Positions 14,776 through 40,474 are shown, numbered from the stretch's first letter. The stretch: 64,000 nt of DNA from Pirellulales bacterium (GCA_963733035.1 CAVTBU010000006.1:237665-301664); one strand, 5' to 3'. Notes: a model not told the origin generated them from the letters alone. Translations and numbers: made by a program.

Positions 14776-15690
14776 ATGAATATCTACATCATCAAGACCA
14801 TCAAGATCCGCAGCTACGAAATGGGTCTGTACTTCCGCGACGGCGAGTTCCGTGGCTTGCTGCGCGAAGGTCGCCACTGGTTCGTAGATCCGCTGGGGAA
14901 GGCCAAGATCGAGGTCGTATCGCAGCGGCAGCCGTGGCTGGCGCACGAGAAGCTCGACGTGATCTCGCGCTCGGGTGCGCTCGAGGACCGCGCGGTGGTG
15001 CTGGACCTGAAGGACTACGAACGGGCTTTGGTCTGGATCGATGGTCACTTCAGCCACATCCTGCCGCCGGGCCTGTACGCCTACTGGACGGCTCTGCGTG
15101 ACGTGAAGGTCGAGGTGGTCGATGCCCGCAAGGCGCGGTTCGAGCACCCGGATCTGAAGGTCATCCTGCAGTCGCCGCTGGTGGACCGTGTGCTGTCGCT
15201 GGCGACGGTGCAGGCGCACCACATGGGCGTGTTGTTCATCGACGGCGACTTCGTCGAGACGTTGCCGCCGGGCCGCTACGCCTTCTGGAAGAACCTGGCT
15301 CAGGTCAAGTTCGTCGAGGAGGATATGCGCGAGGCGATGTTCGACGTGGCCGGCCAGGACATCATGACGGCCGATAAGGTGACGCTGCGAATGACCGAGC
15401 TGATGGAGAAGTTCCCGGTCCACGTGGTGTGCGGCTGGACCGGCAACAGCGAGGCGATCGCGCTGAAGCACTACCTCCAGGTCACCGACGACCATTTCGA
15501 GCGGGCCGTGCGGGGCGAGGCCGAGATCGGGCCGGAAGTCACGCCGACTGTTACCAACACTCTCGCCAACACAACGGCGCAAAAGCGGCGCAGCATGCGC
15601 ACGCAGGGGGTAGCGGCGAGCAGCAGGCGGCTCAGGGCACCAACGCAAAAGCCCCGGGATTGCCGGGGCCTGCGACTTCCCGCGATATAG
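14776..15690 (+). pseudogene. Chimeric ORF: the N-terminal ~205 aa of the SPFH-associated protein family (compare 31445..32557) fused in frame at about 15394 to the last ~70 codons of a tyrosine integrase
   Basis: Protein matches the 31397 ORF up to ADKVTLRM, then matches the integrase C-terminus TELMEKFP.HVVCGW.GNSEAIALKHYLQVTDDHF. Confidence 0.6.
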
Positions 15691-15726
15691 CGAACACTTG
15701 TTCACGCGGGGAGTCGAACCCCCAGC
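15394..15726 (+). repeat. Direct repeat of the integrase 3' end plus att region (partner 40091-40425), ending in a partial tRNA-Glu T-arm core ggggagtcgaacccc
   Basis: Alignment of the two segments, about 93% identical. Confidence 0.7.
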
Positions 15727-15985
15727 GCAACTCTCGGGAAACTCGGCCAATTCCCAACCCCGCGGCGCACAAAACGGCGCCGTCGCCGCACGGGGCAGTT
15801 TAGACGCCGAAATCAGCCCCCAGGGCGCCGCTTTGAGCGATGGCCAAATCGACGTCGGCCTCGTGGTCGTCATCCAGGCCTGGCCGCACCTGCCCCAGGC
15901 GATCGGGAAGGGGATCCTGGCACTGGTGCGGGCGGCTGAGAGCTGATTCGCGCCCCAAGTTCATCTCATGACTTGAAAGGCCTGA

Positions 15986-16696
15986 CTACTCTGAACCAAG
16001 CCGATACCCGATGCCTGGCTCGGTCAGTAGATACTGGGGGCGGGAGGGGTCGGACTCGATCTTGCGGCGCAGGTGGGCCATGTAGACGCGGAGGTAGTGC
16101 GTCTCGAACACGCTGTCGGGGCCCCAGACTTCCTTGAGGAGCTGCCGGTGGGTGACGAGCTTGCCGCCGTGGCGGATGAGGGTCGTCAGCAGCCGATGCT
16201 CGATGGGAGTGAGGTGCACCTCCTTTTCGCCGACGAAGACCTGGTGTCGGCCGAAGTCGACGCGCAGCTCGCCAAGGGTGAACACGGGGGCGTCTGCTTC
16301 GGAAACTTCTGGCAACCGCCGCAGCGCCACTCGGACGCGGGCCAGTAGTTCGCCGACGCCGAACGGCTTCGTCAAGTAATCATCCGCGCCACTGTCGAGT
16401 GCCTTGATCTTGTCGGCCTCGTTTCCGCGCGCGGACAGGACGATGATCGGGACATTCGACCACTGGCGCAGCTTGCGAATCACCGACAGCCCATCGATGT
16501 CCGGCAAGCCCAGGTCCAGCAGCAGCAAGGCGGGCTTCTCGTCCTTCGCTTTCTGCAGCCCATCCTCGCCTGTCGGCGATTCCAGCACACGATATCCACT
16601 GCCGAGCAACGTGGCTCGCAGGAATCTGCGAATCTCTGCCTCATCCTCGATGATGAGGATTCTTGGGAATTGAGCCGGGACTGGTTCCTTAACCAT
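15986..16696 (-). CDS. kdpE: KdpE response regulator (OmpR family)
   Basis: REC plus winged-helix domains. Position downstream of kdpD. Confidence 0.85.
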   Translation of the reverse strand: MVKEPVPAQFPRILIIEDEAEIRRFLRATLLGSGYRVLESPTGEDGLQKAKDEKPALLLLDLGLPDIDGLSVIRKLRQWSNVPIIVLSARGNEADKIKALDSGADDYLTKPFGVGELLARVRVALRRLPEVSEADAPVFTLGELRVDFGRHQVFVGEKEVHLTPIEHRLLTTLIRHGGKLVTHRQLLKEVWGPDSVFETHYLRVYMAHLRRKIESDPSRPQYLLTEPGIGYRLGSE

Positions 16697-16755
16697 TTTG
16701 CATCAGGACGTAAGGCTGCCTGGGCCGGCGGATTGCTGCGGCGTTGTTGCGTTCA

Positions 16756-19463
16756 CTATCTCAACGTCCCGCGGCGGTGGGCCATCGGACACGAACTCCA
16801 GGCGAAACGCGGCACCACCCCCTTCGCGATTTCGGGCGCTGCGCGCCCGCCATGAGCATCCATGATGGCACGGCAGATTGCCAGTCCCAGCCCCGCCCCG
16901 CGCGAATCGGACTTGGCGTCCTCGCCACGCTGGAACCGCTCGAAGATCCGCTCCTCGTCCCCTGGCTTCAATCCAGGGCCGTGATCGGCGATCTCCAAAA
17001 TCGTCTTACGTCCGTCTTGCCAGGCACGGATCTCAATGGCCGTTCCGGCCGGCGTGTACCGGCAAGCATTGTCCAACAAGTTCACGATGGCCTGCTCGAC
17101 CAGGACGGCGTCTACGTGCGCGAGCAAAACTTCGGGCGGCAGATTGACGTTTACGGGCCGATTCGCGAGCGTCCGATCGAGCCGCCGCAGGGCCGAGGCG
17201 ACGATCTCTTCGACCGGCTGCCATTCCTTGCTGATTGCCGGCTTTTCGGAGGACGAAAGCTGCGTCATTCGCAGGATGTTCTCCACCAGCCGCGACAGGC
17301 GATCGGATTCTTCGAAGACGGTCTCCAGCAGTTCGCGTCGCGTCGGTTCGTCCATCGATGTACCACCGTGCAGGAGGCTGCTGGAAGCCCCGACGATCAC
17401 GGCCAGCGGAGTGCGCAAGTCATGCGAAATGGAGGAAAGCAGCGTGCTGCGAATCCTCTCCGTCTCCGCCTGTAGATGCGCCTGGTCCGACTCAAGCGTG
17501 AGCCGATCGCGCTCGATCGCCAAGGCAACCTGCGTCGAGTAGTTTTCCAGGATTTGCCGGTACTCGGGCAGGAGAAGTTTAGCGGCGTCGCTGTGGCGAA
17601 CCGCCAAGACACCCATCGTTCCGCTGGGAGATTGGAGCGGAAGGTAGAGCGCCCGGGCGGAGGGCAAAGTATCGGTGCCGTGGCCAGCCGGCTGGCCGTG
17701 GTCAAATACCCACTGCGCGACGGCAATCTCGGACGGATCGGCGGCGAATCGAGCGCGGTGGTCCAGGATCGGCTGTAACTTGCCGGCACGCGACAGGAAT
17801 ACGGCCGTGTCGCCGCCGAGGAACTCCGAGACGGCACGTTCCGTTTCTGCCGCGATGAAATCTTCGCCCACGATGCCGGTAAGCTTGCGGCCCAAGCGAT
17901 AGAGGGCCTCGATGCGTCGTTCGTTTCGCCGGGCGGACTCGGCCTGGCGTCGGACCCGCGCCGTTAGAGCCGCAATACTAAGCCCTGCAACGAGCATCAC
18001 CGCAAACGTGATCAGATACTGTGTGTCGTTGACAACCACGGTGTAATACGGCTGGGTAAAGATCACATCGAACAGCGCGACCGACACGACCGACGCCACG
18101 ATCGAGGGGCCTCGCCCATACCGGAACGCGACGAACATCACGCCCAGGAGGTAGGTCATCACCAGATTGGCTTCGGTCAGGCCTGCGCGATGCCAAAGTA
18201 ACGAGACGGCAGTGCACGCTGCCAGAACGATTGCCGTTCCGATCCAAGCACGCCACCGAAAACCAATCGTAGACGGAGTGGACGGCGGCGCATGCGGCAC
18301 CAGCTCGGCGGTTCCGTGGATCACGTACACGTCAATGTCGCCGCTCTCGCGAATCAACCGGTCCGCAGGCGACTGCCGTGGCCGGAACCATCCGCGCGTC
18401 AACTCGGACTTGCCGACGACGATCTTGGTCACGTTGCGCTCTTGAGCGTACCCGATCGTCTCGGCGACAAGGTCCTCGCCGCTTACGGTGGCGGTTTCCG
18501 CTCCCAGGCGCTCGGCGAGTCGAAGATGCGCGAGCAGCCGCGCGCGATCCTTCGCGGACATCTCGCCCGATTGCGACGATTCAACGTTGATGGCAATCCA
18601 CTCGGCTCCCAGGGACTCGGCCAAGCGCTTGGCCGCGCGCACCAGCCTGGCTGACGTGGGGCTGGGACCGACGCAAACCAGCAGTCGTTCGCGGGTGGCC
18701 CACACTTCGTGCCGGGCGCGAGCGAGCCGGGCGGTCTGCACGTCGGCGTGCACGCGTTCCGCCGTGCGGCGGAGAGCCAGTTCTCGCAGGGCGACGAGAT
18801 TCTCCTTGCGGAAGAAGTTCTCAAGCGCCCTTGCAGCTTGCGCCGGGATGTAGACTTTTCCCTGCTCAAGACGCTCGAGCAGGTCCTCCGGCGGCAGGTC
18901 GATCAGCGTCAGCTCGTCGGCCCGATTGAAAACATCATCGGGCACGGTTTCGCGCACGATGACGCCGCTGATCTGGGCAACGACATCGTTGAGCGATTCG
19001 ACATGCTGCACATTGCAGGTCGTGTTGACGTTAATTCCGGCGTCCAACAGCTCTTCGACATCCTGCCATCGCTTCACGTGTCGCAGTGATGGCGCATTCG
19101 TGTGTGCCAGCTCGTCGACGAGAATCAGTTCCGGTTTTCGTGCCAAAGCCGCATCCAGGTCAAATTCTCTCAGCGTCGTTCCGCGATAGGGAGCCTCCAG
19201 GGCGCAAGCCGCTCCAGACCTTCGAGCAGCTTCTCGGTTTCGGGCCGCCCGTGCGGTTCGACGTAGCCCACGACGACGTCCGCGCCCGCGGCTTGCTCGC
19301 TGCGAGCATCAAGCAACATGGAATACGTCTTGCCGACACCCGCGGAGTAGCCGAAGAATACTTTCAAGCGACCGCGCTTTGCCTGGTCGGATGACTCCGT
19401 GTCTCCCTCCGTCTTGAGACGAGCCAGCATCTGCTCGGGTGTGGGGCGATCACTGTCGGTCAT
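16756..19463 (-). CDS. kdpD: KdpD sensor histidine kinase, apparently frameshifted (97-aa N-terminal piece 19170..19463 plus 796-aa piece 16756..19146)
   Basis: KdpD N-terminal motif GYSAGVGKTYSML, then USP, GAF, HisKA and HATPase domains. The frame switch lies near 19190-19215 (LAPW.. versus ..PYRGTTLREFDLDAALARKPEL). Confidence 0.8.
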
Positions 19464-20047
19464 GGCGCGGCATTCGCTGGCGGCTTAGCAAGTTGGTCAA
19501 GGGCCACGTTAAGCTCGAGAATATTGACGATCGGCTCTCCTCCCAGAGCGACGATCGTCGGAGAGTCAATGTGCTGGCGAACCAGCTCTTCTACCTGCTC
19601 CGGCCGAAGGTTTCGCGCATCAGCCACCCGTGGCACCTGAAACATCGCAGCGGCCAGCGAAATGTGGGGGTCCATTCCCGAGCCGGATGTCGAGACGAGG
19701 TCGGCCGGAACGAGTTGCCCCGCATCGGGCTTTAGCTCGCCGATGATCTGCCGCGCTTTTTCCGTGAGCAAGGGATTCCTGGGCGACAAGTTGCTGCCTC
19801 CGGTGGCACTGGCATTGTAGTCGCATGCCGAGGGCCGCGGCCAGAAGTAGTCGTGTCGTGAGAAACCCTGCGCGAGCAGCCGCGAGCCGATGATCGTTCC
19901 GTCGGAACTCCTTACGAGGCTTCCCTGTCGCGACTGCGGCGCGGCGAGCACGGCGAAGCCCAGAATGACGGCCGGGTAAGCCACCGAGCAGACCAGAAGG
20001 CTCAATAAGAACAGTCGCAATGACGTGATGATGTCTCTCATGTTCAA
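19460..20047 (-). CDS. kdpC: K+-transporting ATPase subunit C
   Basis: Single N-terminal TM, KdpC-like sequence, operon position. Confidence 0.8.
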   Translation of the reverse strand: MNMRDIITSLRLFLLSLLVCSVAYPAVILGFAVLAAPQSRQGSLVRSSDGTIIGSRLLAQGFSRHDYFWPRPSACDYNASATGGSNLSPRNPLLTEKARQIIGELKPDAGQLVPADLVSTSGSGMDPHISLAAAMFQVPRVADARNLRPEQVEELVRQHIDSPTIVALGGEPIVNILELNVALDQLAKPPANAAP

Positions 20048-20072
20048 TTCTTTCTCACCCCGGGGCCAAAGG

Positions 20073-22181
20073 CTATGCCAATCCGAGGCCCGACAGGACC
20101 AAGTCGATCAACTTGATTCCCACAAACGGCACCACCAATCCGCCCAAGCCGTAGATGAGCAGGTTCCTCCGCAACAAAGCGTCGGCTCCCACGGCCCGGT
20201 AGCGCACGCCCCGGATCGCGATGGGAATGAGGCACGGGATCACGACGGCATTGAAGATCACGGCCGAAAGGATGGCACTCTGAGGCGTGGCGAGCCGCAT
20301 GATGTTCAGCACTTCCAACTGAGGCAGTGCGACCATGAAGATCGCCGGGATGATCGCGAAGTACTTGGCGACGTCGTTGGCCACGCTGAACGTGGTCAAC
20401 GCGCCGCGCGTCATAAGCATCTGCTTCCCCACCGATACGACGTCAATGAGCTTGGTCGGATTCGAATCGAGGTCGACCATGTTGCCGGCTTCCTTGGCGG
20501 CCTGTGTCCCGGTGTTCATCGCCACGGCCACGTCGGCCTGAGCCAGGGCAGGGGCATCGTTGGTGCCGTCGCCGGTCATGGCCACGAGATGCCCGTCTTT
20601 TTGATACTCCCGGATGAGTTCCAGCTTGGCCTCGGGCGTGGCTTCCGCGAGAAAATCATCAACGCCTGCCTCTGCGGCGATCGCAGCGGCCGTCTTGGGG
20701 TTGTCGCCGGTAATCATTACCGTCTTGATGCCCATGCGGCGCAACTCGATGAAGCGTTCTTTGATCCCGCCCTTGACGATGTCTTTCAGGTAAACGGTTC
20801 CCAGTACACGGCTATTCTCGGCAACCACAAGCGGCGTCCCGCCGGCGCGGGCAATCACGTCCACATCGTGTGCGACTTGCTCAGGAAAATCGCCGGCCTG
20901 TTCGTCTATAAATCGCCGGATCACGTCGGCCGCGCCCTTGCGGATGCGCCGACTGTCGAGGTTGATCCCACTCATTCGCGTGCGGGCCGTGAAGTTGACA
21001 AACTCGGCCTGCTTTGCTTCCAGCTCCCGGCCGCGGATGTTGAACCGCTCTTTGGCCAGGACGACGATGCTGCGCCCCTCGGGCGTTTCGTCAGCTAGTG
21101 AGGCCAGTTGGGCCGCATCTGCCAGTTGCCTCTCTTCGATTCCAGACGCGGGCCGGAATTCGGTGGCTTGGCGGTTCCCTAGCGTGATCGTGCCCGTTTT
21201 GTCCAACAGGAGCACATCCACGTCACCGGCAGCCTCGACGGCGCGGCCGGACATGGCCATTACATTCGCCTGGCTCAGACGCGCCATGCCGGCAATGCCA
21301 ATCGCGGCCAACAGCGCGCCGATCGTAGTAGGTATCAGGCAAACCAGCAGGGCGACCAGCGTTGGCACGTCGATGGTCACATCGAAGTATTGCGCAATGG
21401 GATAAAGCGTCGTGCAGACCATCAGGAATATCAAGGTGAAGCCGGCCAGCACGATGGTCAGCGCGATCTCGTTGGGGGTTTTTTGACGCTCCGCTCCCTC
21501 GACCATCGCAATCATGCGATCCAAGAAGCTTTCGCCGGGTCGGGCCGTGACGCGAATCACTAGATGGTCCGATAGCACGCGTGTTCCGCCCGTGACGGCT
21601 GAGCGGTCGCCACCGCTTTCGCGAATCACCGGAGCACTTTCGCCGGTGATCGCCGATTCATCGACCGAAGCGACGCCCTCGATGACTTCGCCATCGGCGG
21701 GAATCGTCTCGCCGGCTTCCACACGCACAAGGTCGCCGTTTTTCAACTCGGAGGCCGGCACGTCTTCGACAGTGGATTGGCTTTGATCGACGAACCGATG
21801 AGCGGTGACGTCTTGCCGCGCCTTGCGCAGGCTGGACGCCTGGGCGCGCCCCGCGCCTCGGCCACGGCCTCGGCGAAGTTCGCGAACCAGTCCGTCAGCC
21901 ACAGCCACACCGAGATGGCGAGGAAATAGCCGGTGCCTTCGCTTCTGGAGACGGCCGCCGAGAGCGTTGCCAATGTGGTCAACATGGCTCCAAGCTCCGT
22001 GACGAACATCACCGGGTTGCGGGCCATTGACCATGGGTTCAGCATTTTGATGGCCTGGCCGACCGATGGCAGCAGCATCCTGGCGGTGAAAAGCGACTTC
22101 TCCTTGCGAAAGGACGAGCCCCCGGAAGAGCCGCCGGCCGACATTGCTTCGACTTGCATGGAGTTTGGCCCTTCGAATCAA
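20073..22181 (-). CDS. kdpB: K+-transporting P-type ATPase subunit B
   Basis: DKTGTIT, TGDN and GDGxND motifs. Confidence 0.9.
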
Positions 22182-23848
22182 CGCGGATTGAGGTGTTCGG
22201 CGATCGGACCCAGCATCGCCAAGGGCAGGAACAACAAGGCTCCGACAATGAGGATCGTTCCCAGCAGGACGACGCCGAACAGCAGCGTGTCAGTGCGGAA
22301 AGTGCCGGCGGTCTCGGGAGCAGCCCGCTTGGCAGCCAATGAGCCAACGATGGCCAGCGGCGCGATGATGGGGATGAACCGACCCAATAACATGACGACT
22401 CCCGTGGCGATGTTCCACGGCACCGTGTTATCTCCCAGACCCTCAAAGCCAGACCCGTTGTTGGCGGCCGCGGAGCTGAACTCGTAGACGATTTCGCTCA
22501 AGCCGTGGCTGCCAGGATTGTGCAGCGTGTCCAGACCCCACGACGTGTCTGCGAACAGCGCGGTCCCGCCCAGGATGAACAGCGGATGAGCCAATAGCGC
22601 GATCAGCGCCAGCTTCATCTCCTTGGTTTCCACCTTGCGAGTGAGATACTCCGGTGTGCGGCCGACCATCATGCCGGCCAGGAATACCGCAGTAATCACG
22701 AACAGGAACATATTGATAAGCCCCACCCCGACGCCCCCGAACACGACGTTCAGCCACATCCCGGCCATCGGCACGATGCTCGTCAGCGGGTTCAGGCTGT
22801 CATGCATCGCGTTCACGCTGCCGTTGCTGGTCGAAGTGGTCGACACGGCCCATGTCGCACCGGCAGTTGTGCCGAAGCGCAGCTCCTTGCCTTCGAGGTT
22901 CATCGAATGCGCGACCGGCAAATCCTCTAAGGCGGCTGTCGGCTGGCTTTCAAGCCAACAAGCAGAGACGACGAAGCTCAGGTAAAGCGCCAGCATCACG
23001 CCGAAGAGCACCGCCGCGTGCCTGACGCGAGCGGTGATGCGGCCGAACATCCAGACGGTCGCCATCGGCACAAGCAGGATGGCAATGTTGGAAAGCACGT
23101 TCGACCAGAACGTCGGATTCTCGAAAGGATGCGTGCAATTCGGCCCGAACCAGCCTCCGCCGTTCGTGCCCAATTGCTTGATCGCGATGAAGGCCGCCAC
23201 CGGGCCACGGGCGATCGTCTGCGTCGCGCCTTCGAGCGTTGTGGCGACCGCCGCACCTTCCAGCGTCATGGGCACCCCGCAAACGACCAGCAGACCGGCC
23301 CAGACGATCGACAGCGGTAGCAGGATCAGGGCCGCCGCTCGCCAGACGTCTTGATAGAAGTTGCCCAGGCGCGAGAACCCTGCGAGCCCTCGGGCGAGCG
23401 CCGTGACGACCCCGATGCCCGTCGCCGCACTGACGAACTGCAGCCACATCAATGCCCCAAGCTGAGAGAAGTAGCTGAGCGATACTTCACCTGAATAGTG
23501 CTGTAAGTTTGTGTTGCTGGTAAAGCTGGCCGCGGTATTGAAGGCCAGGCTTGGTTCGATCGGGCCCTTGTCATCGGGATTGAGCGGCAACCACGGCTGA
23601 GTCGTCAATACGAGATACGCGAACACGAACATCAGCAGATTGAAGGCCAACATCGAGACGCAGTACTGTTTCCAACTCTGCGGCCGGCATATCTCATATC
23701 CAAGCAGCGCCACGCACGCTTTGTCGTAGCGGACGCGAATTGGTCCGGCGTCGCTCGGATCCATCGCCCACTGCATGTATCGCGCCAGCGGCCAAGAGAG
23801 GACGAGCGCTACCACGACGACGATTGTTGGAATAGTCAAACCGAGCAT
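22178..23848 (-). CDS. kdpA: K+-transporting ATPase subunit A
   Basis: 556-aa polytopic membrane protein, [14 protein letters not shown]-terminus typical of KdpA. Confidence 0.85.
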
Positions 23849-23864
23849 CGTCTGGTTTCCACTG

Positions 23865-23957
23865 CTAGAACTGCTCCGGCCGGATGATCACGTAGCAGAG
23901 ATAGCCGAATGCGAAGATCGTCGTCACGATCACGCAACCATTGACAAGCACTTCCAC
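23865..23957 (-). CDS. kdpF: Candidate KdpF (30 aa, GTG start), not present in the ORF track
   Basis: Hydrophobic peptide VEVLVNGCVIVTTIFAFGYLCYVIIRPEQF. GAGGAG RBS. Stop codon 17 nt before the kdpA start. Confidence 0.35.
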   Translation of the reverse strand: MEVLVNGCVIVTTIFAFGYLCYVIIRPEQF

Positions 23958-24166
23958 GGCATTCTCCTCACAGCCGCTCGCAGGCCCAAGTGAAACCAAG
24001 CATCGCCGTGAATTCGGCTATTCCAATGAGGAGCATCAAGATCCACATTCTATCGCCACTCAGGAACCGGCCAGCAAGTCGTCGACGGATGGATTCTAGT
24101 GGGGGCCGCGCTAAAACGGCGTCAAAAAGCCGGCCGCCCAGAATCCCCCAGACGGCGCGAGAATTC

Positions 24167-24480: not shown

Positions 24481-24525
24481 TTGGCCTGACGTGGAGGTGG
24501 TGGCGGGGAACCAGGCAACACACAT

Positions 24526-30964: not shown

Positions 30965-31038
30965 CAGATGGTTAGCTCAGTGGGTAGAGCACCAGACTTT
31001 GCATCTGGCTGTCACGGGTTCGACTCCCGTACCAAACG
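30965..31038 (+). pseudogene. tRNA-Ala(TGC)-like pseudogene, copy 2
   Basis: Same as 14303-14376. Confidence 0.4.
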
Positions 31039-31444
31039 CGGCTAAAAACCGCTCCGGCGCGAAAGCGTTACCAAACGCCCGCGGGGGCGGGCAAGCGTAG
31101 GTCTGCCGCTGGCACAGCGTTGAAAGACGCGGGCCCGTGCGGCGCAAGCGTCGCAACGTGCCACGTGCCAGTGGCAAACACAAGACGGTGCCCTGCAGTG
31201 CGCAGATACCGCTTGTGCGAGTCCTTGGCAACGACAAACCGACGCCGATGGCAAAGCGCGAGCCATGCTCAAGCAACGCCCTCGGCAAAGCGAAATCAAC
31301 GCCTTGGATAGCACAGGCTCAAGCGCACTCCGCATACGGATGTGGGACCGACGTTTCGCTTCGCCCCCAACGGCATTTTATTTGTGAACTAACTCGGTGG
31401 CTCGAACGTCCTATCAGTTCATGTACCGAGAGGAGGCAATTCCA

Positions 31445-32557
31445 ATGAACATCTTCATCATCAAGACAATCAAGATCCGCAGCTACGAAATGGGTCTGTA
31501 CTTCCGCGACCGCGAGTTCAAGGGCTTGCTCGGCGAAGGTCGCCACTGGTTCATAGACCCGCTGGGCAAGGTCAATGTTGAAGTCGTCTCGCGGCGTGCG
31601 CCGTGGCTCGCGCACGAGAAGCTCGACGTGATCTCGCGCTCGGGTGCGCTCAAGGACCGCGCGGTGGTGTTGGACCTGAAGGACTACGAACGGGCTCTGG
31701 TCTGGATCGAGGGTCGCTTCAGCCACATCCTGCCGCCGGGCCTGTACGCCTACTGGACGGCGCTGCGTGACGTAAAGGTCGAGGTGGTCGATGCGCGGCA
31801 TGTGCGCTTCGAGCACCCGGACCTGAAAGTCATCGTGCAGTCGCCGCTGGTCGAGCGCGTGCTGGAGCTGGCCACCGTGCAGGCGCACCACGTGGGCGTG
31901 CTGTTCATCGACGGCGACTTCGTTGAGACGTTGCCGCCGGGCCGCTACGCCTTCTGGAAGAACATGGCCCAGGTCAAGTTCGTCGAGGAGGATATGCGGG
32001 AGGCGATGTTCGACGTGGCCGGCCAGGACATTATGACGGCCGATAAGGTGACGCTGCGGATGAACGCGGTCGTCACGTATCGCGTCGCCGATGCCCGGAC
32101 GGCTGTGAGCACGGTGGACGACGTGCGGCAGGCCTTGTACCGCGAGGCCCAATTGGCGCTGCGTGCCGTGGTGGGTGCCCGCGAGCTCGACACGTTCTTG
32201 ATGGAGAAGGACGGCGTGGCGAGCGAGTTGGCCGACATGGTGCGTGCGCGTGCCAAGACCTTGGGCGTGGAGCTGATTGCCGTGGGTATCCGCGACATCA
32301 TCCTGCCGGGCGAAATGAAGGATCTGATGAACCGCGTCACGGAGGCCAAGAAGGCCGCCGAGGCCAACCTCATCGCTCGCCGCGAGGAAACGGCCGCCAT
32401 GCGCAGCCAAGTCAACACCGCCAAGCTGCTAGCCGACAACCCGACCCTGATGCGCCTCCGCGAGCTGGAGGTCCTGGAAAAGGTTGCCGCCAACTCGAAG
32501 CTCAACATTGTGTTGGGCGAAAAGCGGTTGACCGAGCGGATCGTCAATGTGCTGTAG
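31445..32557 (+). CDS. SPFH/Band-7 (stomatin/prohibitin-like) domain protein with an ~200-aa N-terminal domain of unknown function
   Basis: C-terminal half QDIMTADKVTLRMNAVVTYRV..LRAVVGARELD..GVELIAVGIRDI..AEA fits the SPFH domain. Confidence 0.7.
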   Translation: MNIFIIKTIKIRSYEMGLYFRDREFKGLLGEGRHWFIDPLGKVNVEVVSRRAPWLAHEKLDVISRSGALKDRAVVLDLKDYERALVWIEGRFSHILPPGLYAYWTALRDVKVEVVDARHVRFEHPDLKVIVQSPLVERVLELATVQAHHVGVLFIDGDFVETLPPGRYAFWKNMAQVKFVEEDMREAMFDVAGQDIMTADKVTLRMNAVVTYRVADARTAVSTVDDVRQALYREAQLALRAVVGARELDTFLMEKDGVASELADMVRARAKTLGVELIAVGIRDIILPGEMKDLMNRVTEAKKAAEANLIARREETAAMRSQVNTAKLLADNPTLMRLRELEVLEKVAANSKLNIVLGEKRLTERIVNVL

Positions 32558-32631
32558 CAAGAAGCCCCGAGGGCTGGACGCGAGTCCCGCCCTCGGGATT
32601 ATTCTATTGAGCAAGCGGATCCTCGGCAGCC

Positions 32632-33608
32632 TCAAACACCGAAGATCGGCAATTGCAGCTTCTCTTGCAGCTCTGCCCGCACTTTCCCGCCTAGCAGGAA
32701 CCGGACGAAATCGCCGGCTTCAAGCAACCGGATATCAGCCGCATCCGCTTCCCGCCGCGCCTCGTCGGTGAAGCCGAACACTGACACAAAGCAAAACCGG
32801 CCGATGCCCAGCCTTTCGAAATCGTGCTCAATCTCCGCCCAGCCGACCGGCTGGTTTTGGTACCGCTTTACTTGCACCCGCCACACCTCCTCGCCCAGCT
32901 CGCCGTGATCGAACCGCGCTTCGACATCGATGATGGGCTGATTCTTGCCCACCCGCCGTTCATCCACCACCGCGCCTTGCGCTTCAAGTAGTCGACGACG
33001 AGCCACTCCCAATCCTTGTCGTTGAGCGCCTCCGAGCGCCGGATGATGAGCGTTTGCAGCCGATGGTAGGCATCCTGCACGTCCTTGTCCGGCGCGGCGA
33101 TAAGGTTCGGCGACTGGCCGCGCACGATTTGATCGACAATGTCGAACGCCTCGGCGATTTCCCAGAACGACATCCTCGGCCCGAGCAAGCTGCCCTTGAG
33201 CCGCCCGTAGAAATCGAGAATCTTGATCGCAGGCACCGGGTACTCGACGCGGCGGTAGTGCCAGATATCGGTCTGGTCCTCAAGCTCGAAATCACGATAC
33301 AGCGAGTCAGACGCGACGCGGCAGATTTGCACGCATTTCCCAATCGGGTTGTAGTAGAGAATGTAGTCGCCCGCCGCGCATTCGCGTCCGAAGCGGAATA
33401 GCTGTCCGGTGCCTACCCCTACCTCGCGGTCTTGCTTGTAGAACGCGCACACGCTTTTCACATGCGACCACAACTCGTCACGCGTTCCGCTCGCAAGCAG
33501 CTTCGGATCAACGTCCTGCCAGCCGACGCCGACGATGCCGTGCCGCCGGCAGAACTCAACGCAAATCCCGCCCGAACCGAGCTTGATTCCCCACACCCGC
33601 TGGCCCAT
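32632..33608 (-). pseudogene. Mrr-like (Type IV) restriction endonuclease, frameshifted (246-aa N-terminal ORF plus 126-aa Mrr_cat ORF overlapping in 32868-33012)
   Basis: C-terminal PIIDVEARFDHGELGEEVWRVQVKRYQ catalytic region. Two overlapping frames. Confidence 0.5.
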
Positions 33609-33767
33609 GTCTCATCCCCAAAAAAGCTTCCCGAATACCACATCACCCGCCTTTCCACAACCGCCTGGGTTTTCGCGATGTCCGCCCGCACTGTTTCGTT
33701 CAACGCCAGGCCGCGGGCGACTATACTTGTACCACACTCGCGCCATCACGAATCGCTCGTTAGTGAC

Positions 33768-34259
33768 ATGACGAAAATCGAACTGTACCTCCTGAACCTT
33801 GCGGGCGAATATCGCGTTTGCAGCGAGCTCAATAAGCGCGGCGTGTTCGCCACCATCACGTATGGCAACCGCAAGGGCGTCGATATCTACGCCATCAGCG
33901 ATGCAAAGAATCGCGCACTGAAGATCGAGGTTAAAACAAGCCAGCACGGCCGCTTCGTCACCGGCATCTCCCAGAAATGCCTGGAGGACAGCCCGCACGC
34001 CCCGGATTTCTGGGTCTTGTGCGACATCAAGGCGGGCGACACTGACGCATTCACCGAGCGGTTCTTCATCCTATCCCACCGCACCATCTGCCGCATCCAG
34101 AAGGCGCGCAACCAGAAATACGCCGACAAGTACACTGCCAAGCACGGTAAGGCCCCCGACCTCGCCGGCGGCGTCGACAACGTAATGATCGCCGACGTGG
34201 AGAAGTTTGAGGACAAGTGGTCGAGCATTGTCAAGCGAGTCAGGAAGCCTATCACCTGA
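33768..34259 (+). CDS. PD-(D/E)xK nuclease-fold protein
   Basis: VDIYAI..KIEVKTS motif. 163 aa from MTKIELY. Confidence 0.45.
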   Translation: MTKIELYLLNLAGEYRVCSELNKRGVFATITYGNRKGVDIYAISDAKNRALKIEVKTSQHGRFVTGISQKCLEDSPHAPDFWVLCDIKAGDTDAFTERFFILSHRTICRIQKARNQKYADKYTAKHGKAPDLAGGVDNVMIADVEKFEDKWSSIVKRVRKPIT

Positions 34260-34297
34260 CCGCGGCGAGCCAATCAAGATAGGTATCGCGAATTAGG

Positions 34298-35035
34298 TCA
34301 CTCAGCCTCTTTGCCAAGGAGTTTTTTTACGAGTGCAACCGAACCATCGAGGAAAGCAAGTCGATCCTCGATGGCGATTCGTGCCAATGGGCCCGGCGAA
34401 GCGAGAATCTCGTCAATATAGAACAATCGCACTGGACGCTCGAATATTTCGCTAAGCCTCACTTCAATTTGAGTATGTTCGTCAGAGCGACTCCACAGAA
34501 CGAGATAACTCTCTGCCACAGGTTCCCCGCGAACTACAGACAGTAGCAGGAATAGACCGTCGCGACCGCTAACAAAGTATCGGTCCACATCCTTCCAAGT
34601 AACCGGCCCACTGAAGCCGCCCCAACTCTTGCATTCACCCGAAATCAAACCGTCCGGTGAGCGCAGCAACAAGTCGAGCTGTACACGGCCGCCCGTGGTT
34701 TGGCACTTTCGCGTCAACTCTTTAATGCCCCACGAACGAAGCGGCTCAGGCAAGCAGGGAAAAGTGCCGCTTGTGGCCAGTCGTTCGCCCGATGGAATCA
34801 GTTCGTGTCCCTTGATGGAACGTTCGGCGACGGAGGAGAGTCCGTGATCTTCAAACCACGCTCGCACGACAGGCTCGTAAAACCCCTGGTATCCGAGTAT
34901 CCAATACGCAAATGCCCGCGTCTTGGGGTTCGTTTCCATCAATGTTTGTGCGCTTGTAGCACCACCTGCAACGGGCGCTGTCGACAGCGGCTCGTTTCCA
35001 ACCGATGCAGTTGCCTGCGCAACCTCAATCGGCAA
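34298..35035 (-). CDS. PD-(D/E)xK nuclease-fold protein, co-transcribed partner of the Lon-like protease
   Basis: PDGLISGECK motif. 11-nt overlap with the upstream gene. Confidence 0.45.
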   Translation of the reverse strand: MPIEVAQATASVGNEPLSTAPVAGGATSAQTLMETNPKTRAFAYWILGYQGFYEPVVRAWFEDHGLSSVAERSIKGHELIPSGERLATSGTFPCLPEPLRSWGIKELTRKCQTTGGRVQLDLLLRSPDGLISGECKSWGGFSGPVTWKDVDRYFVSGRDGLFLLLSVVRGEPVAESYLVLWSRSDEHTQIEVRLSEIFERPVRLFYIDEILASPGPLARIAIEDRLAFLDGSVALVKKLLGKEAE

Positions 35036-36692
35036 TTGCTTTAATTAAGGCTTCCCGTGCATCACCGTAAAACACAATCGTCACTTTCGTCGCCAAATCG
35101 TCAGACAGTTCAAAGAGCTGTTTTCGCGATGAAATTGGCATGAGGACAACGGACGCGCCTTTCTCGACCGCCAATTCGACGACATCAATCGCATTGTGCA
35201 CCGGATCAATTGACCCACCGAGATTCAATCCCCCTACAACAACCAAGCCGCCGCGTAGGCTGCGGTTTATCAGTGACGAACAGAGGCCCAAGAGGGCGGC
35301 CATGCCTAGCGACCTTCCGCCCTTGCTGGCGTCAAACGCCCGCAGCTGAATTGAAAACTCGTGCTCCCGCGGGTTGCGGTCACCGACAAGTTGAGACGGC
35401 TGAGAATACAAATTGGCTTCCGCGTACTTCACTGACTCAGAGAACGACGGAGGAGCCGGTCGATTGAGAATTCGCGTCCCATTGCCTGGACCTTCAGAAA
35501 CTTCGATGCGATACAGCCCCGAACCTTCGTCCTGGCCGCCGGGGCTAATCGCCCATACTTGTCCAGGCGGCAATGGATCGCGGCCGATATGGTCCTCGCT
35601 CTGCAATTCCGGGGTGACGACGAACTGTTCGATGCCGTCGCGGCCAAGCGCGTAACTAAACTGCGTGTTTCGGAACTCGGCACTGCCGATTCGCTTCTGT
35701 TGCTCCTTGACGCGTCGGCGAGATTCCAATGCCAGACGCACTGCCCATTCAAGGTCTTTGTCAGACACGTCTTCGTCCGGGCTAGGATGAATGAGCTTGA
35801 GTAGGCCATTGATTGTTTTGTTGGCTGCGTTTTGATCCCGACCACTCAATGCACCTCCGAACGTTACTCTTCCCTGCAGGGTCGATAGCCGATTGTGGCT
35901 TCTTAGGCGGGTCCAACACTCGCTCAGGAAATCGGATACCAGCCCAAAATGGTTCGTCTTTGTTTGTTCGGAGACTTTCGGCACGTCCCAGCCTGGAAGG
36001 TAACCGTGAATTCGGTCCATGAGTGCGGTGTCATCTCGCATTTCGGGCGGCATCGGACCGAATAGGTGCCCGACTCGTTGCTGATGTGCCACATCGACTT
36101 CAAAATTCCCGACCATTACGATACTGCCGTAAGCCCTAATGCTTTCCTTTCCGCGGCTGAATTCACCGGACTCCATGTACCCTTTCATGATGTTGACGCC
36201 GTCCTTTTGATCGAAGGACACGCCGGACACCTCGTCGAAACACACCACATCATACTGACACACCAAGCCGCGCTGCCCCGTGCTGTTATTCACAAACATG
36301 CGGGCCACCGTCGCTTTGCCGCCGGAAACCAGGTGAGCGTACGGCGATATTTGCTGATATAAATGGCTCTTGCCAGTTCCACGCGGACCGAGTTCAACCA
36401 GGTTGTAGTTATTCTCAACAAAGGGAACCATGCGCAGGAGGAGGGCATCCATATTCCGAGGGCTGAGCGACTGCGGCTCCAGCCCGATGCTCCGAATCAA
36501 GAACTGCTTCCATTCATCGGTGGTAAAACGTTGACGCCCTTCATAGAGGCTGTCCAGCACATCCCGTTTCGAGGCAAGTCTGCCTGATGCCAAGAAGTCA
36601 GGCACGGGCTGGTCGGCCTGCTGTCCGGCCCACGACGATCGGCAGCCCAGCCTGTCGATCGCCGAGGGGGAGGACGGCCGGGTCTTGCTCAA
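35025..36692 (-). CDS. BrxL-like Lon-family protease (P-loop ATPase plus S16 Lon C-terminal proteolytic domain)
   Basis: ELGPRGTGKSHLY..VVCFDEVSG..GVNIMKGYMESGEFSRG in the ATPase domain. C-terminal Lon proteolytic-like region. No other BREX genes nearby. Confidence 0.55.
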   Translation of the reverse strand: MSKTRPSSPSAIDRLGCRSSWAGQQADQPVPDFLASGRLASKRDVLDSLYEGRQRFTTDEWKQFLIRSIGLEPQSLSPRNMDALLLRMVPFVENNYNLVELGPRGTGKSHLYQQISPYAHLVSGGKATVARMFVNNSTGQRGLVCQYDVVCFDEVSGVSFDQKDGVNIMKGYMESGEFSRGKESIRAYGSIVMVGNFEVDVAHQQRVGHLFGPMPPEMRDDTALMDRIHGYLPGWDVPKVSEQTKTNHFGLVSDFLSECWTRLRSHNRLSTLQGRVTFGGALSGRDQNAANKTINGLLKLIHPSPDEDVSDKDLEWAVRLALESRRRVKEQQKRIGSAEFRNTQFSYALGRDGIEQFVVTPELQSEDHIGRDPLPPGQVWAISPGGQDEGSGLYRIEVSEGPGNGTRILNRPAPPSFSESVKYAEANLYSQPSQLVGDRNPREHEFSIQLRAFDASKGGRSLGMAALLGLCSSLINRSLRGGLVVVGGLNLGGSIDPVHNAIDVVELAVEKGASVVLMPISSRKQLFELSDDLATKVTIVFYGDAREALIKAIAD

Positions 36693-38933
36693 GTGTCACG
36701 CCGGTTGCCCAGTCGATGCAATCTGTGCGGCGCTCGGCCTCAAGCCGACAGACCTGTTTGCAGTGTCAACGTCAACGGTATTGCACCCAGCCCGGGAAAA
36801 ACACCAATACCGTGGACAGGCAAACGGCAAAACGATGGGCAACTCGTTCGCCACCGCTGACGAGGCAATCCACGAGCTCGAGCGGCGGCATGGCCCTTCC
36901 ACGGCCCGATGGACCTACCGCGATGACAGCGGAGTTGTGGTCGGCGTGGTCGTTCGATGGGACTTGCCGGACGGCAGCAAGAAGATTCGGCCAGTCAGCC
37001 TGCATGGCGACCACTGGCGAATTGCGGGAATGTCCACGCCTCGGCCGTTGTACCGCCCGGAAGACCTGCGTGACGCGAAGCGGGTCTACGTCTGCGAGGG
37101 CGAGAAGGCCGTGGAAGCGGCCCGATCGCTCGGACTGATCGCGACCACTTCGGCGCATGGATCGAAGTCGTCGGACAAGACCGATTGGAGTCCGCTCGCC
37201 GGGAGGGAGGTCGTGCTTCTGCCCGACAACGATCCGGCTGGACTTGAGTATGCAGACGCAGTCGTCGGTCTGTTGGAGCGACTCAAGCCTCCTCCGACGA
37301 TCAAGGTGGTAGAGCTGCCTGACCTGCCGCAGAAGGGCGACATCGTGGAGTGGATCGAATCACATGGCGACGCAGCGGAGCCCGAGTCAATGCGAGACGA
37401 ACTGGAGCAACTGGCCGACCAAGCAGATTTTGTTCAGCGCAATGTTCCGGCGAAATCAGGCGCCCGCGTCGTGAGCTTCACTCCGTTTCCGACGGAGGTG
37501 TTGCCCGAACCGATTCGAAGCTTTGTGCTTGTTGCAGCAAGGGCAATCTGCTGTGACGCGTCGTACATCGTTCTCCCGTTGTTGGCCGTGCTGGCGTCGG
37601 CGATTGGCAACACGCGCCGATTGACACTCAAGCCTGGGTGGAACGCGCCAGCAATCATCTGGACAGCCATCGTGGGCGAGAGCGGCACGGCCAAGACGCC
37701 GGCGTTTTCGCTCGTGATGCGGCCCATCAAGAATCGCCAGGCGAAGGCGCTCAAGCAATACGAAGCGGACATGCAGCAGTACCAGACTGACCTGGCGAAC
37801 TATGACAAGGCGTTGACCGTCTGGAAACGGGATAAGAACACAACGGATCCGCCGCCGGACAAGCCGCATGAGCCACAGCCCAGACGGTGCATGGTCGGCG
37901 ACACAACCGTCGAAGCACTCGCCCCGATTCTCAAGGCAAACTGGTGCGGCGTGCTGGTGGCCCGAGATGAGTTGGCCGGCTGGATTGGCTCGTTCGATCG
38001 ATACGCCAGCGGCAAGGGCGGTGCAGACTCCCGCATTGGTTGAGCATGTTCAATGGCGAGAACATCTCCGTGGATCGCAAGACGGGCATCCCCAAAACCA
38101 TTTTCGTTCCGCTGGCCTCCGTTTGTGTGACCGGCGGCATTCAGCCGGCCATTCTGCATCGGGCCCTGGGAACTCAGCACAGAGAGTCTGGTCTGGCGGC
38201 GCGTCTGCTCGTGTGTTGCCCTCCGCGCAAGGCCAAGAAGTGGACCGATGCGGGCATCGACCCATCCATGGAAGCACAGCTTGCCATGCTGCTGGATCGT
38301 CTGTTTGAGCTCGAGCCCAGGTTCGACGAGGACGACGAGCCGATGCCGGTCCTGGTTCGACTGTCGAAGGAAGCGCATGAGGAGTGGAAGGCCTACTACG
38401 ATGCCCATGCGCATGAGCAGGTCGATTTGACCGGCGATCTGTCCGCAGCGTGGTCAAAGCTCGAGGAATATGCCGCTCGGCTGGCGCTCGTGGTCCATTT
38501 GGTCCGCTGGGCCGCCGATGACCCAACGCTGGAGTCAGAACATGTCGTCGACGTCGACAGCGTTCGAGCGGGCGTCACGATGACCCAGTGGTTCAAGCAC
38601 GAAGTTCGACGTGTCTATGCGCTGCTGTGCGAGACGGACGAGGAGCGAGACGAGCGCCGGCTCGTCGAGTGGATCGATCGCAAAGGCGGAGCGGTCACAG
38701 CTCGCGAGGCGCACATGGGCTGCCGCTGGCTTCGGGAGGCGGGCTTGGCCGAAGCTGCACTGAATGCGCTGGTGCAATCTGGGCAGGGCACCTGGGAACC
38801 ATCGCCTCGCGGAGCTCGTGGCCAACCGACGCGCCGATTCCGACTGACAACAGCGTCAACCGTCAACGGTAATTGTCCCGCACCCGACGAAAAGACGAAT
38901 ACCGTTGACGTTGACGACGCAGACGCAGCGTAG
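36587..38933 (+). pseudogene. P4-type DNA primase (zinc-binding CPAHDD..PSL, Toprim, DUF3987-like C-terminus) split into up to three frames
   Basis: Zinc-binding motif upstream of the 36685 ORF and in frame with it. Toprim VYVCEGEKA..LPDND. The ORFs 36685..38043 and 38040..38933 are contiguous in different frames. Confidence 0.55.
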
Positions 38934-39082
38934 ATCGCACTCGCCAGGGGAACTTTTGGCAGTTCCCCGTCCACCGGGCCCGTTTGCTTTGCAAGATGCG
39001 AAACGTGCCGGTAGTGTCCGCGTGTGGCCCGTCGCGAACCGACGCGAGCCCGTGCAACTTTACAACGACCAAGTTCTAAATC

Positions 39083-40309
39083 TTGAAACGAAAGGAAATG
39101 AAGATGGCAAGTATCGCAACGGATCAAAATGGCCGGCGGCGAATTCTGTTTATTGCGCCGGATGGACGGCGGCCAACGGTGCGGCTGGGCAAGGTGTCGC
39201 AGCGGGCGGCTGAGGGCGTGAAGCACCGCGTGGAACAATTGCTCGAGTGCAAAATGCTTAACCGGCCGATGGAGGCGGACCTGGCAACGTGGGTCGCGAG
39301 GCTGCATCCTCGCATGGCCAAGAGGTTCGCGGCGGTGGGGCTGATTCCCAAGGCGGATGCGCTGGCGGGCCCAACGTTGCAGAACTTCATCAACGAATAC
39401 ACCACGGCACGCAGCGACATCAAACCACGGTCGGTCAATCGATTGGAAGCGGCCGGCAAGAAGCTCGTGGAGTGCTTTGGGCCGGATCGGCGGATGAAGG
39501 AGTTTACGATTGGAGACGCCGACAGCTTCCGTATTTGGCTGCTTGGACAAAGTTTTGCTGAAAACACCGTGCGGCGGCTTTGCGGACGTGCCAAGCAGTT
39601 CTTCAGGGCGGCTGTGCGGCGGAAGCTGATCCCGGAGAATCCGTTCGGCGATCTGGTGTCCGCGGTGCGAGGCAACCCCAGCCGCTTCTACTTCGTTACT
39701 CAAGAGGAGGCGACGAAAGTGCTCGATGCCTGCCCCGACGCCGAATGGCGGCTCTTGTTCGCGCTCAGCCGCTACGGCGGGCTGCGCTGCCCCAGCGAGC
39801 ACCTCAGCATGCGGTGGGGCGATGTCGACTGGGCGAACAATCGGGTGCGTGTGCCCAGCCCGAAGACGGAGCACATTGAGGGGAAGGAGTCGCGGATGAT
39901 CCCCATGTTCCCCGAGTTGAAACCGTACCTCGAGGAGGCGTTCGAGCAAGCCGCGCCGGGCACCGAGTTTGTGATCAACCGCTACCGCAGTTGCAACGCC
40001 AACCTGCGAACCCAGCTCATGCGGATCATCAAACGGGCCGGACTGAAGCCGTGGCCCAAGCCGTTTCAGAACCTGCGGAGCACGCGGGAGACCGAGCTGA
40101 TGGAGAAGTTTCCGGCCCACGTCGTGTGCGGTTGGATTGGCAACAGCGAGGCGATCGCGCTCAAGCACTACCTGCAAGTCACCGACGACCATTTCGATCG
40201 GGCCGTGCGGGGCGAGGCGGAGATCGGGCCGGAAGTCGCGCCGACTGTTACCAACACTCCCGCCAACCCAGCGGCGCAAAGCGGCGCAGCATGCGCACGC
40301 AACGGGTAG
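39083..40309 (+). CDS. Tyrosine-type site-specific integrase
   Basis: C-terminal catalytic region ..LRSTRETELMEKFPAHVVCGWIGNSEAIALKHYLQ. Lies adjacent to tRNA-Glu. Confidence 0.8.
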   Translation: MKRKEMKMASIATDQNGRRRILFIAPDGRRPTVRLGKVSQRAAEGVKHRVEQLLECKMLNRPMEADLATWVARLHPRMAKRFAAVGLIPKADALAGPTLQNFINEYTTARSDIKPRSVNRLEAAGKKLVECFGPDRRMKEFTIGDADSFRIWLLGQSFAENTVRRLCGRAKQFFRAAVRRKLIPENPFGDLVSAVRGNPSRFYFVTQEEATKVLDACPDAEWRLLFALSRYGGLRCPSEHLSMRWGDVDWANNRVRVPSPKTEHIEGKESRMIPMFPELKPYLEEAFEQAAPGTEFVINRYRSCNANLRTQLMRIIKRAGLKPWPKPFQNLRSTRETELMEKFPAHVVCGWIGNSEAIALKHYLQVTDDHFDRAVRGEAEIGPEVAPTVTNTPANPAAQSGAACARNG

Positions 40310-40425
40310 CAGCGAGCCGCAGGCGACTCAGACCACCAACGCAAAAGCCCCGGGATTGCCGGGGCCTGCGACTTCCTGCGATATAGTGAACACTTGTTCA
40401 GTACCCCCACGGGGAGTCGAACCCC
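40091..40425 (+). repeat. Direct repeat partner of 15394-15726 (integrase 3' end plus att core)
   Basis: Alignment. Confidence 0.7.
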
Positions 40426-40474
40426 GGTTTTCGGACTGAGAATCCGACGTCCTGGGCCACTAGACGATGGGGGC
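40402..40474 (-). tRNA. tRNA-Glu(CTC), integration target next to the integrase
   Basis: Reverse complement gives acceptor gccccca/tgggggt, a TCGTCTAGTGGCCCAGGAC D-arm, stem tcgga/tccga, loop TTCTCAG and T-loop TTCGACT. Confidence 0.65.

Follow-up and report, generated by a model that had tools for sequence, protein, structure and literature searches.

Does the long direct repeat that runs into a tRNA-Glu gene of a Pirellulales-like planctomycete mark the two ends of one integrated element, with a kdpFABCDE operon and an array of tRNA genes inside it, or does it record more than one integration? We addressed this for a 64-kb stretch of that genome (GCA_963733035.1, CAVTBU010000006.1:237665-301664), called the window below and meaning the whole 64,000 nucleotides (nt). 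The reading we favour, with a probability of roughly 0.78, is that two related integrative islands are stacked at the 3' end of tRNA-Glu(CTC). Under it, island 2 (15723-40425, 24.7 kb) is the newer one and lies next to the tRNA gene, and island 1 is the older one, running from before position 1 to 15704 (at least 15.7 kb) and having no integrase.

Island ends at the tRNA-Glu gene

Both ARAGORN and Rfam (58.7 bits) place tRNA-Glu(CTC) at 40401-40474 on the minus strand. The open reading frame (ORF) at 39083-40309 on the plus strand matches the Pfam families Phage_integrase and Phage_int_SAM_5, which makes it a tyrosine recombinase, and it converges on the tRNA gene with a gap of 92 nt between its stop (40309) and the tRNA start. 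ARAGORN, Rfam and Pfam thus bear out the original prediction of an integrase abutting an opposite-strand tRNA-Glu(CTC). A self-BLAST of the window recovered the predicted direct repeat as 15393-15722 against 40090-40425 (90.2% identity over 337 columns, E 8e-129); it had been given as 335 bp ending in a T-arm core, and it does end there, although its distal end is 15722 and not 15726. Both copies stop at the same base, the end of an exact 15-mer, GGGGAGTCGAACCCC (15708-15722 and 40411-40425), which is the T-arm of tRNA-Glu read antisense and which has just these two exact plus-strand matches in the window. Allowing up to two mismatches, the core pattern matches 13 times against 0.24 expected by chance, and the remaining 11 matches are T-arms of plus-strand tRNA genes. 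The displaced tRNA fragment at 15705-15722 agrees with 40408-40425 at 17 of 18 positions in the same orientation; beside the core, the distal copy has one mismatch and lacks seven nt (GTACCCC) of the acceptor 3' strand.

The repeat bounds an island, as had been proposed, but it is not itself a duplicated attachment (att) site: its att portion appears to be about 18 nt, and the other ~310 nt appear to be the integrase 3' end of a neighbouring, degenerate island. Self-comparison shows that 3457-15722 is collinear with 24163-40425 over about 12 kb, in the same order and orientation and at 78-93% identity. The left copy has no counterpart of 32066-40090 (8 kb), and the flanks of this gap meet at 15393-15397, exactly where an SPFH gene is fused to an integrase gene. 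In the fused ORF (14776-15690), residues 1-207 are 90% identical to the SPFH protein encoded at 31397-32557 and residues 203-269 are 85% identical to integrase residues 333-399, so that the in-frame fusion to a truncated SPFH gene noted earlier holds at the residue level. The fusion at the gap junction, together with collinearity extending well beyond the repeat, argues that the repeat is not a duplication made by a single integration. An 8-kb deletion with its junction at 15393-15397 would have created the chimeric ORF.

In the mechanism we propose, the integration of island 2 would have pushed island 1 away from the tRNA gene, and the 8-kb deletion would have taken the cargo of island 1, its primase and most of its integrase gene (int), leaving the last ~310 nt of int. 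Island 2 would then read, from its left attachment site (attL), as an integrase-tail ORF, kdpFABCDE, the tRNA-array module, a few defence-like genes, a P4-alpha-like primase and the integrase. Tandem islands at tRNA genes are common, with 125 tandem arrays in a database of 3919 islands (PMC4383910). Our locus is like those Islander-type islands in having a tyrosine integrase beside an intact tRNA gene, a far end marked by a displaced 3' fragment of that gene in like orientation, a crossover in the T-stem/acceptor region and a newer island that entered the tRNA gene regenerated by the older one (PMC4383910). It is unlike them in that the older island has no integrase, its distal fragment is not in the window, and the repeat is unusually long owing to the surviving integrase relic.

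An attachment site inside the integrase gene

The far arm of island 2 can be recognised from relatives of its integrase, which has more than 5000 homologues in the databases. A tRNA gene follows the int match on the opposite strand in more than 20 metagenome loci, at 50-209 nt in the 18 loci that were measured, and the tRNAs concerned are varied (Asn, Val, Arg, Leu, Gln, Pro, Met, Glu). In 15 of 18 non-redundant integrated loci the int frame enters the antisense tRNA by at least 10 nt, compared with 6 and 4 of 18 for the other two frames. One locus, L085, is a complete 6.8-kb integrated island. Its 24-nt direct repeat starts at the 3' end of tRNA-Val, reaches the T-stem and stops in the T-arm register that is also seen for the core in the window. 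Its integrase ends ...GGMGGKGLEP/LTFSV-stop at the tRNA, and the ORF at its far end reads ...GGKGLEP/PAQSPEK...DPDLRTVVSAWATLPEHVRQAILLLVRSAGPGVQP-stop, in the same frame as int through the core and ending with the tail motif. Similarly, the integrase of L108, which targets tRNA-Glu(CTC), ends ...PPRGVEP/LSSD-stop. In a 7.5-kb contig with no tRNA (L136; ERZ4756920 NODE_14016), positions 1-608 recur at 6800-7407, which points to a 6.8-kb circle or tandem unit; its 488-residue integrase (P0090) holds core and tail within one reading frame, and it also carries an AAA_25 replication protein and an HTH_17 gene. This contig is probably the free form of such an island.

The part that is detached is a short C-terminal tail of about 45-70 residues, conserved in the family (..PDL..VV.AWP.LP..IR.AIL.LVR..). 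The tail motif also occurs in L002, L030, L088 and L119 and, after a truncated integrase relic, in L126-L128; the tail peptide matches no Pfam family, even at E = 10. Judged from the gene sequences, L085, L136/P0090 and the 15 of 18 integrated loci show that in this family attP lies within the int reading frame. In the circular form, int encodes ~490 residues including the conserved tail; on integration into the T-arm/acceptor part of a tRNA gene the tail is separated and comes to lie at the far end of the island, and the integrated int then ends a few codons into the antisense tRNA. The tail may alter the activity or directionality of the integrase, in which case integrated and free forms would behave differently.

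In the window, the ORF at 15698-15946 is a family tail that reads in the family frame through the core, which is why we start island 2 at 15723; this ORF, rather than the long repeat, would be the true distal arm of island 2. The int copy of island 2 has an A3 tract at 40278-40280 where the family frame implies A5 (AAQKAAQQAH in the intact member P0012), and it stops 13 codons past this tract, the frame into the core being otherwise open. The tract differs in length in each of three related copies, with A3, A4 and A5 distributed over 40278-40280, 15581-15584 and ~8960 of L081, possible reasons being a hot spot for mutation, a slippery site and an artefact of sequencing. We also considered L002 for defining the far end and rejected it, as its available 6.5 kb hold no tRNA-Glu repeat and its tail-like ORF is oppositely oriented. 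In L088, a contig without the tRNA, a tRNA-like fragment stands upstream of the tail ORF in the other orientation, and we leave it uninterpreted.

Integrases that extend across attP are known from Mx8 and SSV, where the 3' end of the integrase gene is replaced on integration (PMC6070905, PMC4383910). The family described here resembles Mx8 IntP and the SSV1 type in having attP within the integrase coding sequence and a tRNA gene as target. Unlike these, it consists of 6.8-kb primase-integrase elements and their cargo-laden derivatives and not of phages, and unlike SSV1, where a large part of the enzyme is detached, it loses only a short C-terminal tail. A tblastn search of 50,697 phage records showed no similarity to Mx8 IntP; it gave only matches to Streptococcus phage integrases, at 24% identity over half the protein. 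A tentative extension, to which we give slightly less than even odds, is that these planctomycete integrases form a large, undescribed family with a built-in switch: with attP in int, integration would remove the conserved tail, the tail would be rejoined only on excision, and it would set directionality or stability, so that free and integrated forms would differ biochemically. The 6.8-kb elements would serve as a chassis that picked up, just inside the tail, kdp and a self-contained tRNA-array module of 30-37 genes under the control of its leader.

For annotation, there is a trap in taking a long direct repeat at the edge of an island for an att site: it can be what is left of a neighbouring island, and the far arm proper can be a stretch split off from the integrase gene. 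Few mobile elements of Planctomycetota have been described, and we found no description of planctomycete tRNA-integrating islands in the literature; the family supplies a sequence-defined example, in which we can name the att register, a minimal member of 6.8 kb, and both an integrated and a free form. The phenomena themselves (tandem islands at a tRNA gene, a mobile tRNA array, an attP-spanning integrase) are known, here in a phylum where they are hardly described.

The kdp operon and the competing explanations

The two collinear segments could in principle belong to one composite island of at least 40 kb, in which an old internal segment was duplicated in situ by unequal recombination and the copies then diverged, with never two integrations. 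The segments are collinear and in the same orientation, the same insertion sequence (IS) sits at the same tRNA-Ser position in both, no left att site of island 1 was found, and the leaders preceding the two tRNA arrays are 82% identical to each other compared with 64-71% to those of two further loci with the same module, L134 and L135. Outside the leader, the copies are as far apart as they are from the elements of other genomes. The YbjN segments are 93.3% identical to each other and 94.1% and 94.5% identical to L134; the SPFH segments of copies 1 and 2 share 89.7%, while copy 2 and L134 share 93.1%; and the two P' arms share 92.3%, each being 94.4% identical to L081. Such distances argue for two acquisitions and not for a recent local duplication. 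Moreover, 15705-15722 is a tRNA fragment in the exact register of the family followed by the family's tail ORF, which integration into a regenerated tRNA gene predicts and unequal crossing-over does not, and the shared IS position is explicable by the target specificity of the IS110 family. We consider a single composite island improbable, at about one chance in ten, and of the two options the original prediction had left standing, one element or tandem islands, it is tandem accretion that collinearity and junction structure support.

Is the kdp operon, then, cargo of island 2 or resident chromosome? The kdpE stop (15986) is 40 nt from the stop of the tail ORF, and the region upstream of kdpF ends 115 nt before the leader of the second array, so that kdp has DNA of the island family on either side. 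In four relatives kdpFABCDE lies elsewhere; nucleotide identity to these operons is 76-82% and stops precisely at the limits of the operon (15986-24048), and the neighbours on the kdpE side differ in all four. In one of these, L082 (GCA_022844125.1, JALHMI010000009.1; 13509-13760), a tRNA 3' fragment, GGCGGCGGGAATCGAACCCC, is followed by a tail ORF converging on kdpE. These junctions suggest that kdp lies just inside attL in two genomes, the window and L082. For L082 the island model would imply a tRNA gene with a 3' end that fits GGGGTTCGATTCCCGCCGCCTCCA and an integrase converging on it. The L082 junction is also entered by a truncated copper-ATPase-like ORF (HMBD ... AQRSRAPIQRL), which recalls the window's fusion of SPFH to integrase. 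No att core was found in 23850-24200, between kdpF and the leader of the array, and a start of island 2 at 24163 was ruled out on that ground.

The opposing view is that kdpFABCDE is resident chromosome and that the repeat goes back to a rearrangement at this locus, such as inversion, transposition or an integrase acting at a secondary site, by which chromosomal DNA came to lie between island fragments. The G+C content of the operon matches the backbone, its proteins share 71-92% identity with their counterparts in related Pirellulales, in keeping with vertical descent, and kdp has ordinary contexts in L083, L137 and L138. We nevertheless regard this as very unlikely, given island-family DNA within 40 and 115 nt on the two sides, a kdpE-side flank that differs in every one of the four relatives and leaves no conserved chromosomal home, the independent occurrence in L082 of a tRNA fragment and tail ORF beside kdpE, and an empty site without kdp in L006. 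This last genome, a distant relative, has the same kinase and an identical tRNA-Glu(CTC), after which come ordinary genes (for a FAD hydroxylase, hydrolases and a TetR regulator) and neither an integrase nor kdp; a hint from translated searches of an integrase relic past its tRNA was rejected by nucleotide alignment.

The tRNA-Glu gene is identical in the window, L006 and L081. In L002 the same tRNA carries an integrase of 54% identity together with a primase, and in L081 the int DNA is 92% identical compared with 75-78% for the flanking chromosome. The site is thus one that is targeted repeatedly, and the integrase module passes from species to species. On the right side of the tRNA, the DLH-family protein matches bins of Pirellulales and other Planctomycetota at no more than 76% amino acid identity. 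Relatives with kdp at this locus but without integrase or repeats, which the original prediction had named as the sign of a mere local rearrangement, were not seen: L006 is empty, L081 and L002 have other islands there, and kdp lies elsewhere. That a kdp operon, which encodes a potassium-uptake pump, can be island cargo in this group bears on core physiology inferred from metagenome bins.

Several observations weigh against the stacked-island reading. No second core, tRNA-Glu fragment or tail ORF was found in 1-15700 with a 2-mismatch pattern, a regular expression or a profile hidden Markov model, and with the left end of island 1 missing, the tandem model is anchored at one junction only; we presume that this end lies outside the window or has eroded. 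The strict Islander definition of a tandem gives each island its own integrase and its own tRNA fragment, whereas island 1 keeps only int codons ~333-399 and there is no second fragment in 1-15700, so that the tandem origin is inferred from collinearity and junction structure. The window's own int and tail are in different frames, and the A-tract frameshift could be an assembly error, as could the other single-base indels that we read as decay. The kdp operon has a host-like G+C content of 0.61-0.64 compared with 0.55-0.58 for the arrays, which fits capture from a related planctomycete, and its closest relatives, L137 and L138 (80-82% DNA identity), are not beside a tail ORF. The relatives used are ~70-78% identical, placing the comparisons outside the same species, and neither an excision product nor a same-species empty site was seen. 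Finally, a misjoin across the 1.8-kb, 99.9% identical IS copies is possible.

This last point leads to the explanation by artefact, in which two loci with similar islands were collapsed or misjoined across the IS copies or across the ~90% similar arrays, and the indels are sequencing errors. The IS repeat is indeed 1811 bp long at 99.9% identity, two of the three kdp indels fall in homopolymer runs, and related long-read contigs such as L081 are full of frameshifts. Exchanging sequence across the IS copies would not remove the island-family DNA from either side of kdp and would keep the junction at 15393-15946 unbroken; there is no frameshift in the syntenic 12.5 kb of backbone relative to relatives, and the rest of the right flank consists of dense, well-formed ORFs. 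An artefact on this scale would surprise us as much as a resident kdp operon. Compared with two relatives, kdp has three 1-nt deletions, at ~21852 in kdpB and at ~19203 and ~16842 in kdpD, the two in runs being in runs of G or C; the operon is either a pseudogene cluster or the site of assembly indel errors confined to this region.

Further cargo and the tRNA-array modules

The features of the window are collected in Table 1. Most of the content predicted between the repeats was recovered, namely kdpFABCDE, the second tRNA array, an IS110 copy, HNH, the BrxL-like Lon protease and the P4-type primase (DUF3987/Toprim), while the labels "Mrr-like" and "two PD-(D/E)xK" were not reproduced, the genes concerned giving HEPN/AbiV, PDC-S02-like or no match instead.

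Table 1. Coordinates of island and flanking features, counted from the first nucleotide of the window
Feature	Position	Strand	Description
Presumed distal cargo, island 1	1..3456		Three ORFs, no family match; G+C 0.55-0.57
Array module copy 1, island 1	3457..15397	+	Leader 3457-3790; 30 tRNA genes 3792-14158; IS110-family 8690-10432; 2-kb insert with Tox-REase-2; YbjN-like 12794-13444; truncated SPFH
Chimeric ORF	14776..15690	+	SPFH N-terminal 207 residues fused to integrase residues ~333-399
Putative relic integrase 3' end and P' arm, island 1	15393..15704	+	Bulk of distal repeat; 92% identity to island 2 copy, 94% to L081
Putative attL of island 2, former attR of island 1	15705..15722	+	Displaced tRNA-Glu 3' fragment CGCGGGGAGTCGAACCCC; degenerate (7-nt deletion, one mismatch)
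Integrase-tail ORF, putative P arm of island 2	15698..15946	+	Reads LFTRGVEP/PAQLS...VVVIQAWPHLPQAIGKGILALVRAAES-stop through core; ends 40 nt from kdpE stop
kdpFABCDE operon	15986..24048	-	kdpE 15986-16696; kdpD ~16724-19463; kdpC 19460-20047; kdpB 20073-22181; kdpA 22178-23848; kdpF 23868-23957
Array module copy 2, island 2	24163..32600	+	Leader with terminator hairpin 24163-24525; 14 tRNA genes 24526-30819; IS110-family 25952-27694; HNH 27984-28580; YbjN-like 29313-29957; HEPN/AbiV 30084-30743; SPFH 31397-32557
Variable cargo	32601..36692		PDC-S02-like 32868-33608 (-); ORFs 33432-34259 (+) and 34298-35035 (-); BrxL-like 35025-36692 (-)
DUF3987/Toprim primase-helicase (P4-alpha-like)	36685..38933	+	Split by frameshift near 38000-38040
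Tyrosine integrase, island 2	39083..40309	+	Stops 92 nt before tRNA via frameshift at A-tract 40278-40280
Putative P' arm	40310..40400	+	Rest of ancestral int frame (frame +1: ...KAPGLPGPATSCDIVNTCSVPPRGVEP); leads into core; hairpin GCCCCGG/CCGGGGC
tRNA-Glu(CTC)	40401..40474	-	Chromosomal integration target; putative attR core CACGGGGAGTCGAACCCC = 40408-40425
Conserved backbone right of tRNA	40628..53128		Ser/Thr kinase, DLH-family hydrolase, sugar-phosphate isomerase-like protein, others; syntenic in seven relatives

Among the cargo of island 2, the product of 32868-33608 resembles the candidate defence protein PDC-S02 and 30084-30743 encodes HEPN/AbiV, while the ORFs 33432-34259 and 34298-35035 match no family. 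The BrxL-like gene is solitary and N-terminally truncated, covering positions 168-677 of the 680-position profile, and its neighbours match no BREX models, so that it does not represent a BREX system, in which BrxL is accompanied by BrxA/B/C, PglX and PglZ. At the left edge of the window, the ORFs in 352-3406 have no match in Pfam or NCBIfam. With its integrase and DUF3987/Toprim primase-helicase at a tRNA gene and its defence-type cargo (AbiV, the BrxL relic, the PDC-S02-like protein), island 2 is like P4-like satellites and primase-integrase elements. Unlike them, it lacks an AlpA-like gene, and its integrase converges on the tRNA and overlaps it antisense; capsid-hijacking or cos functions were not seen either, though no search was aimed at them. 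A small HTH_17 (AlpA/Xis-like) gene precedes the primase in L081, L085 and L136 and is absent from island 2. This absence, the int frameshift, the split primase, the damaged attL and the kdpB and kdpD frameshifts together indicate that island 2 is probably immobile or decaying, and the compared backbone genes show no such frameshifts or defects. Because attL is missing seven nt, a tRNA-Glu gene restored by excision through what is left of the core would lack its acceptor 3' strand.

Long tRNA arrays, defined as at least 20 tRNA genes at no fewer than two per kb (PMC4758250), spread horizontally, often with an HNH neighbour (PMC8421152, PMC4758250). Array 1 is one of these by that definition, with 27 tRNA genes in 3792-8327 (~6 per kb) and 30 up to 14158; array 2, with 14, is a deletion derivative. 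The Glu-CTC gene of the array matches the chromosomal one at 51 of 75 aligned positions. Through homologues of the YbjN-like gene we found the same module in L134 and L135, with leader, tRNAs in the same order, HNH, YbjN and SPFH; L134 has 33 tRNA genes and L135 has 38, all but one of them (37) in the array. Similarity to the window begins at the leader and ends ~45 nt past SPFH in both. No integrase lies within 7 kb of the module in L134. In L135 (ERZ25039489 contig_53463) the module is part of a complete 16.5-kb island (739-17333), which is delimited by an imperfect ~56-nt repeat of the 3' part of tRNA-Leu(CAA) and has an unrelated-looking integrase and DUF5131 and GMT-wHTH genes. Its presence in a tRNA-Leu island with a different integrase suggests that the module is cargo moving between backbones, and hence that long tRNA arrays travel as a discrete module.

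A leader of ~330 nt with long invariant blocks precedes all four arrays (window 3457-3790 and 24163-24525; L134 475-835; L135 5408-5865); its last part, immediately ahead of the first tRNA, is a strong terminator-like hairpin that has a T-run (24445-24475; 3706-3745). No Rfam family matches the leader at gathering thresholds, the Rfam matches in the window being tRNAs only. The leader may be an attenuator by which the array is kept silent; for the Anabaena array, relief of such a block by translational stress is reported. The modules are like the L-arrays of Anabaena 7120 and Acidithiobacillus ICEAfe1 (PMC8421152, PMC4758250) in having 30-37 same-strand tRNA genes for most amino acids, an HNH gene inside the array, tRNAs foreign to the host and a location on mobile DNA. 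They are unlike them in their planctomycete host, in their carrier, a small tRNA-integrating island as opposed to a 300-kb integrative and conjugative element or a plasmid, in the conserved leader with its hairpin and in the presence of two diverged copies 20 kb apart.

The near-identical IS110-family repeats span 8690-10500 and 25952-27762. Their last 68 nt (10433-10500 and 27695-27762) are not IS but the 3' part of tRNA-Ser(GCT), a gene that is intact in L134 (7440-7527), which means that the interruption falls at an identical point of this tRNA gene in the two arrays, through site-specific insertion or else through gene conversion from one array to the other. The IS110-family transposase gene is followed by about 470 nt without coding sequence. 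The T-arm of tRNA-Ala(TGC) in the arrays (minus-strand matches 8221-8235 and 25566-25580) has the sequence of the 15-nt att core, in the orientation opposite to that of attL and attR; the integrase may use it as a secondary site, which would lead to an inversion.

Array 1 also contains a cyclic-phosphate-processing receiver domain (cREC_REC) gene at 7406-7843 (-), and its 2-kb insert (10500-12516), which is not in array 2, encodes the Tox-REase-2 nuclease-fold protein at 10933-11463 (-). Its tRNA-Arg(TCT) (12516-12605) carries, in the region of the variable loop, a 17-nt insertion that is missing from array 2 (27793-27865), L134 and L135, and scores 31.8 bits in Rfam compared with 52.8. Lastly, a 147-nt inverted repeat of 86% identity (208-351 and 12228-12374) brackets nearly all of array 1, and each of its arms lies just upstream of an unannotated ORF, 352-1749 (+) and 11487-12260 (-).

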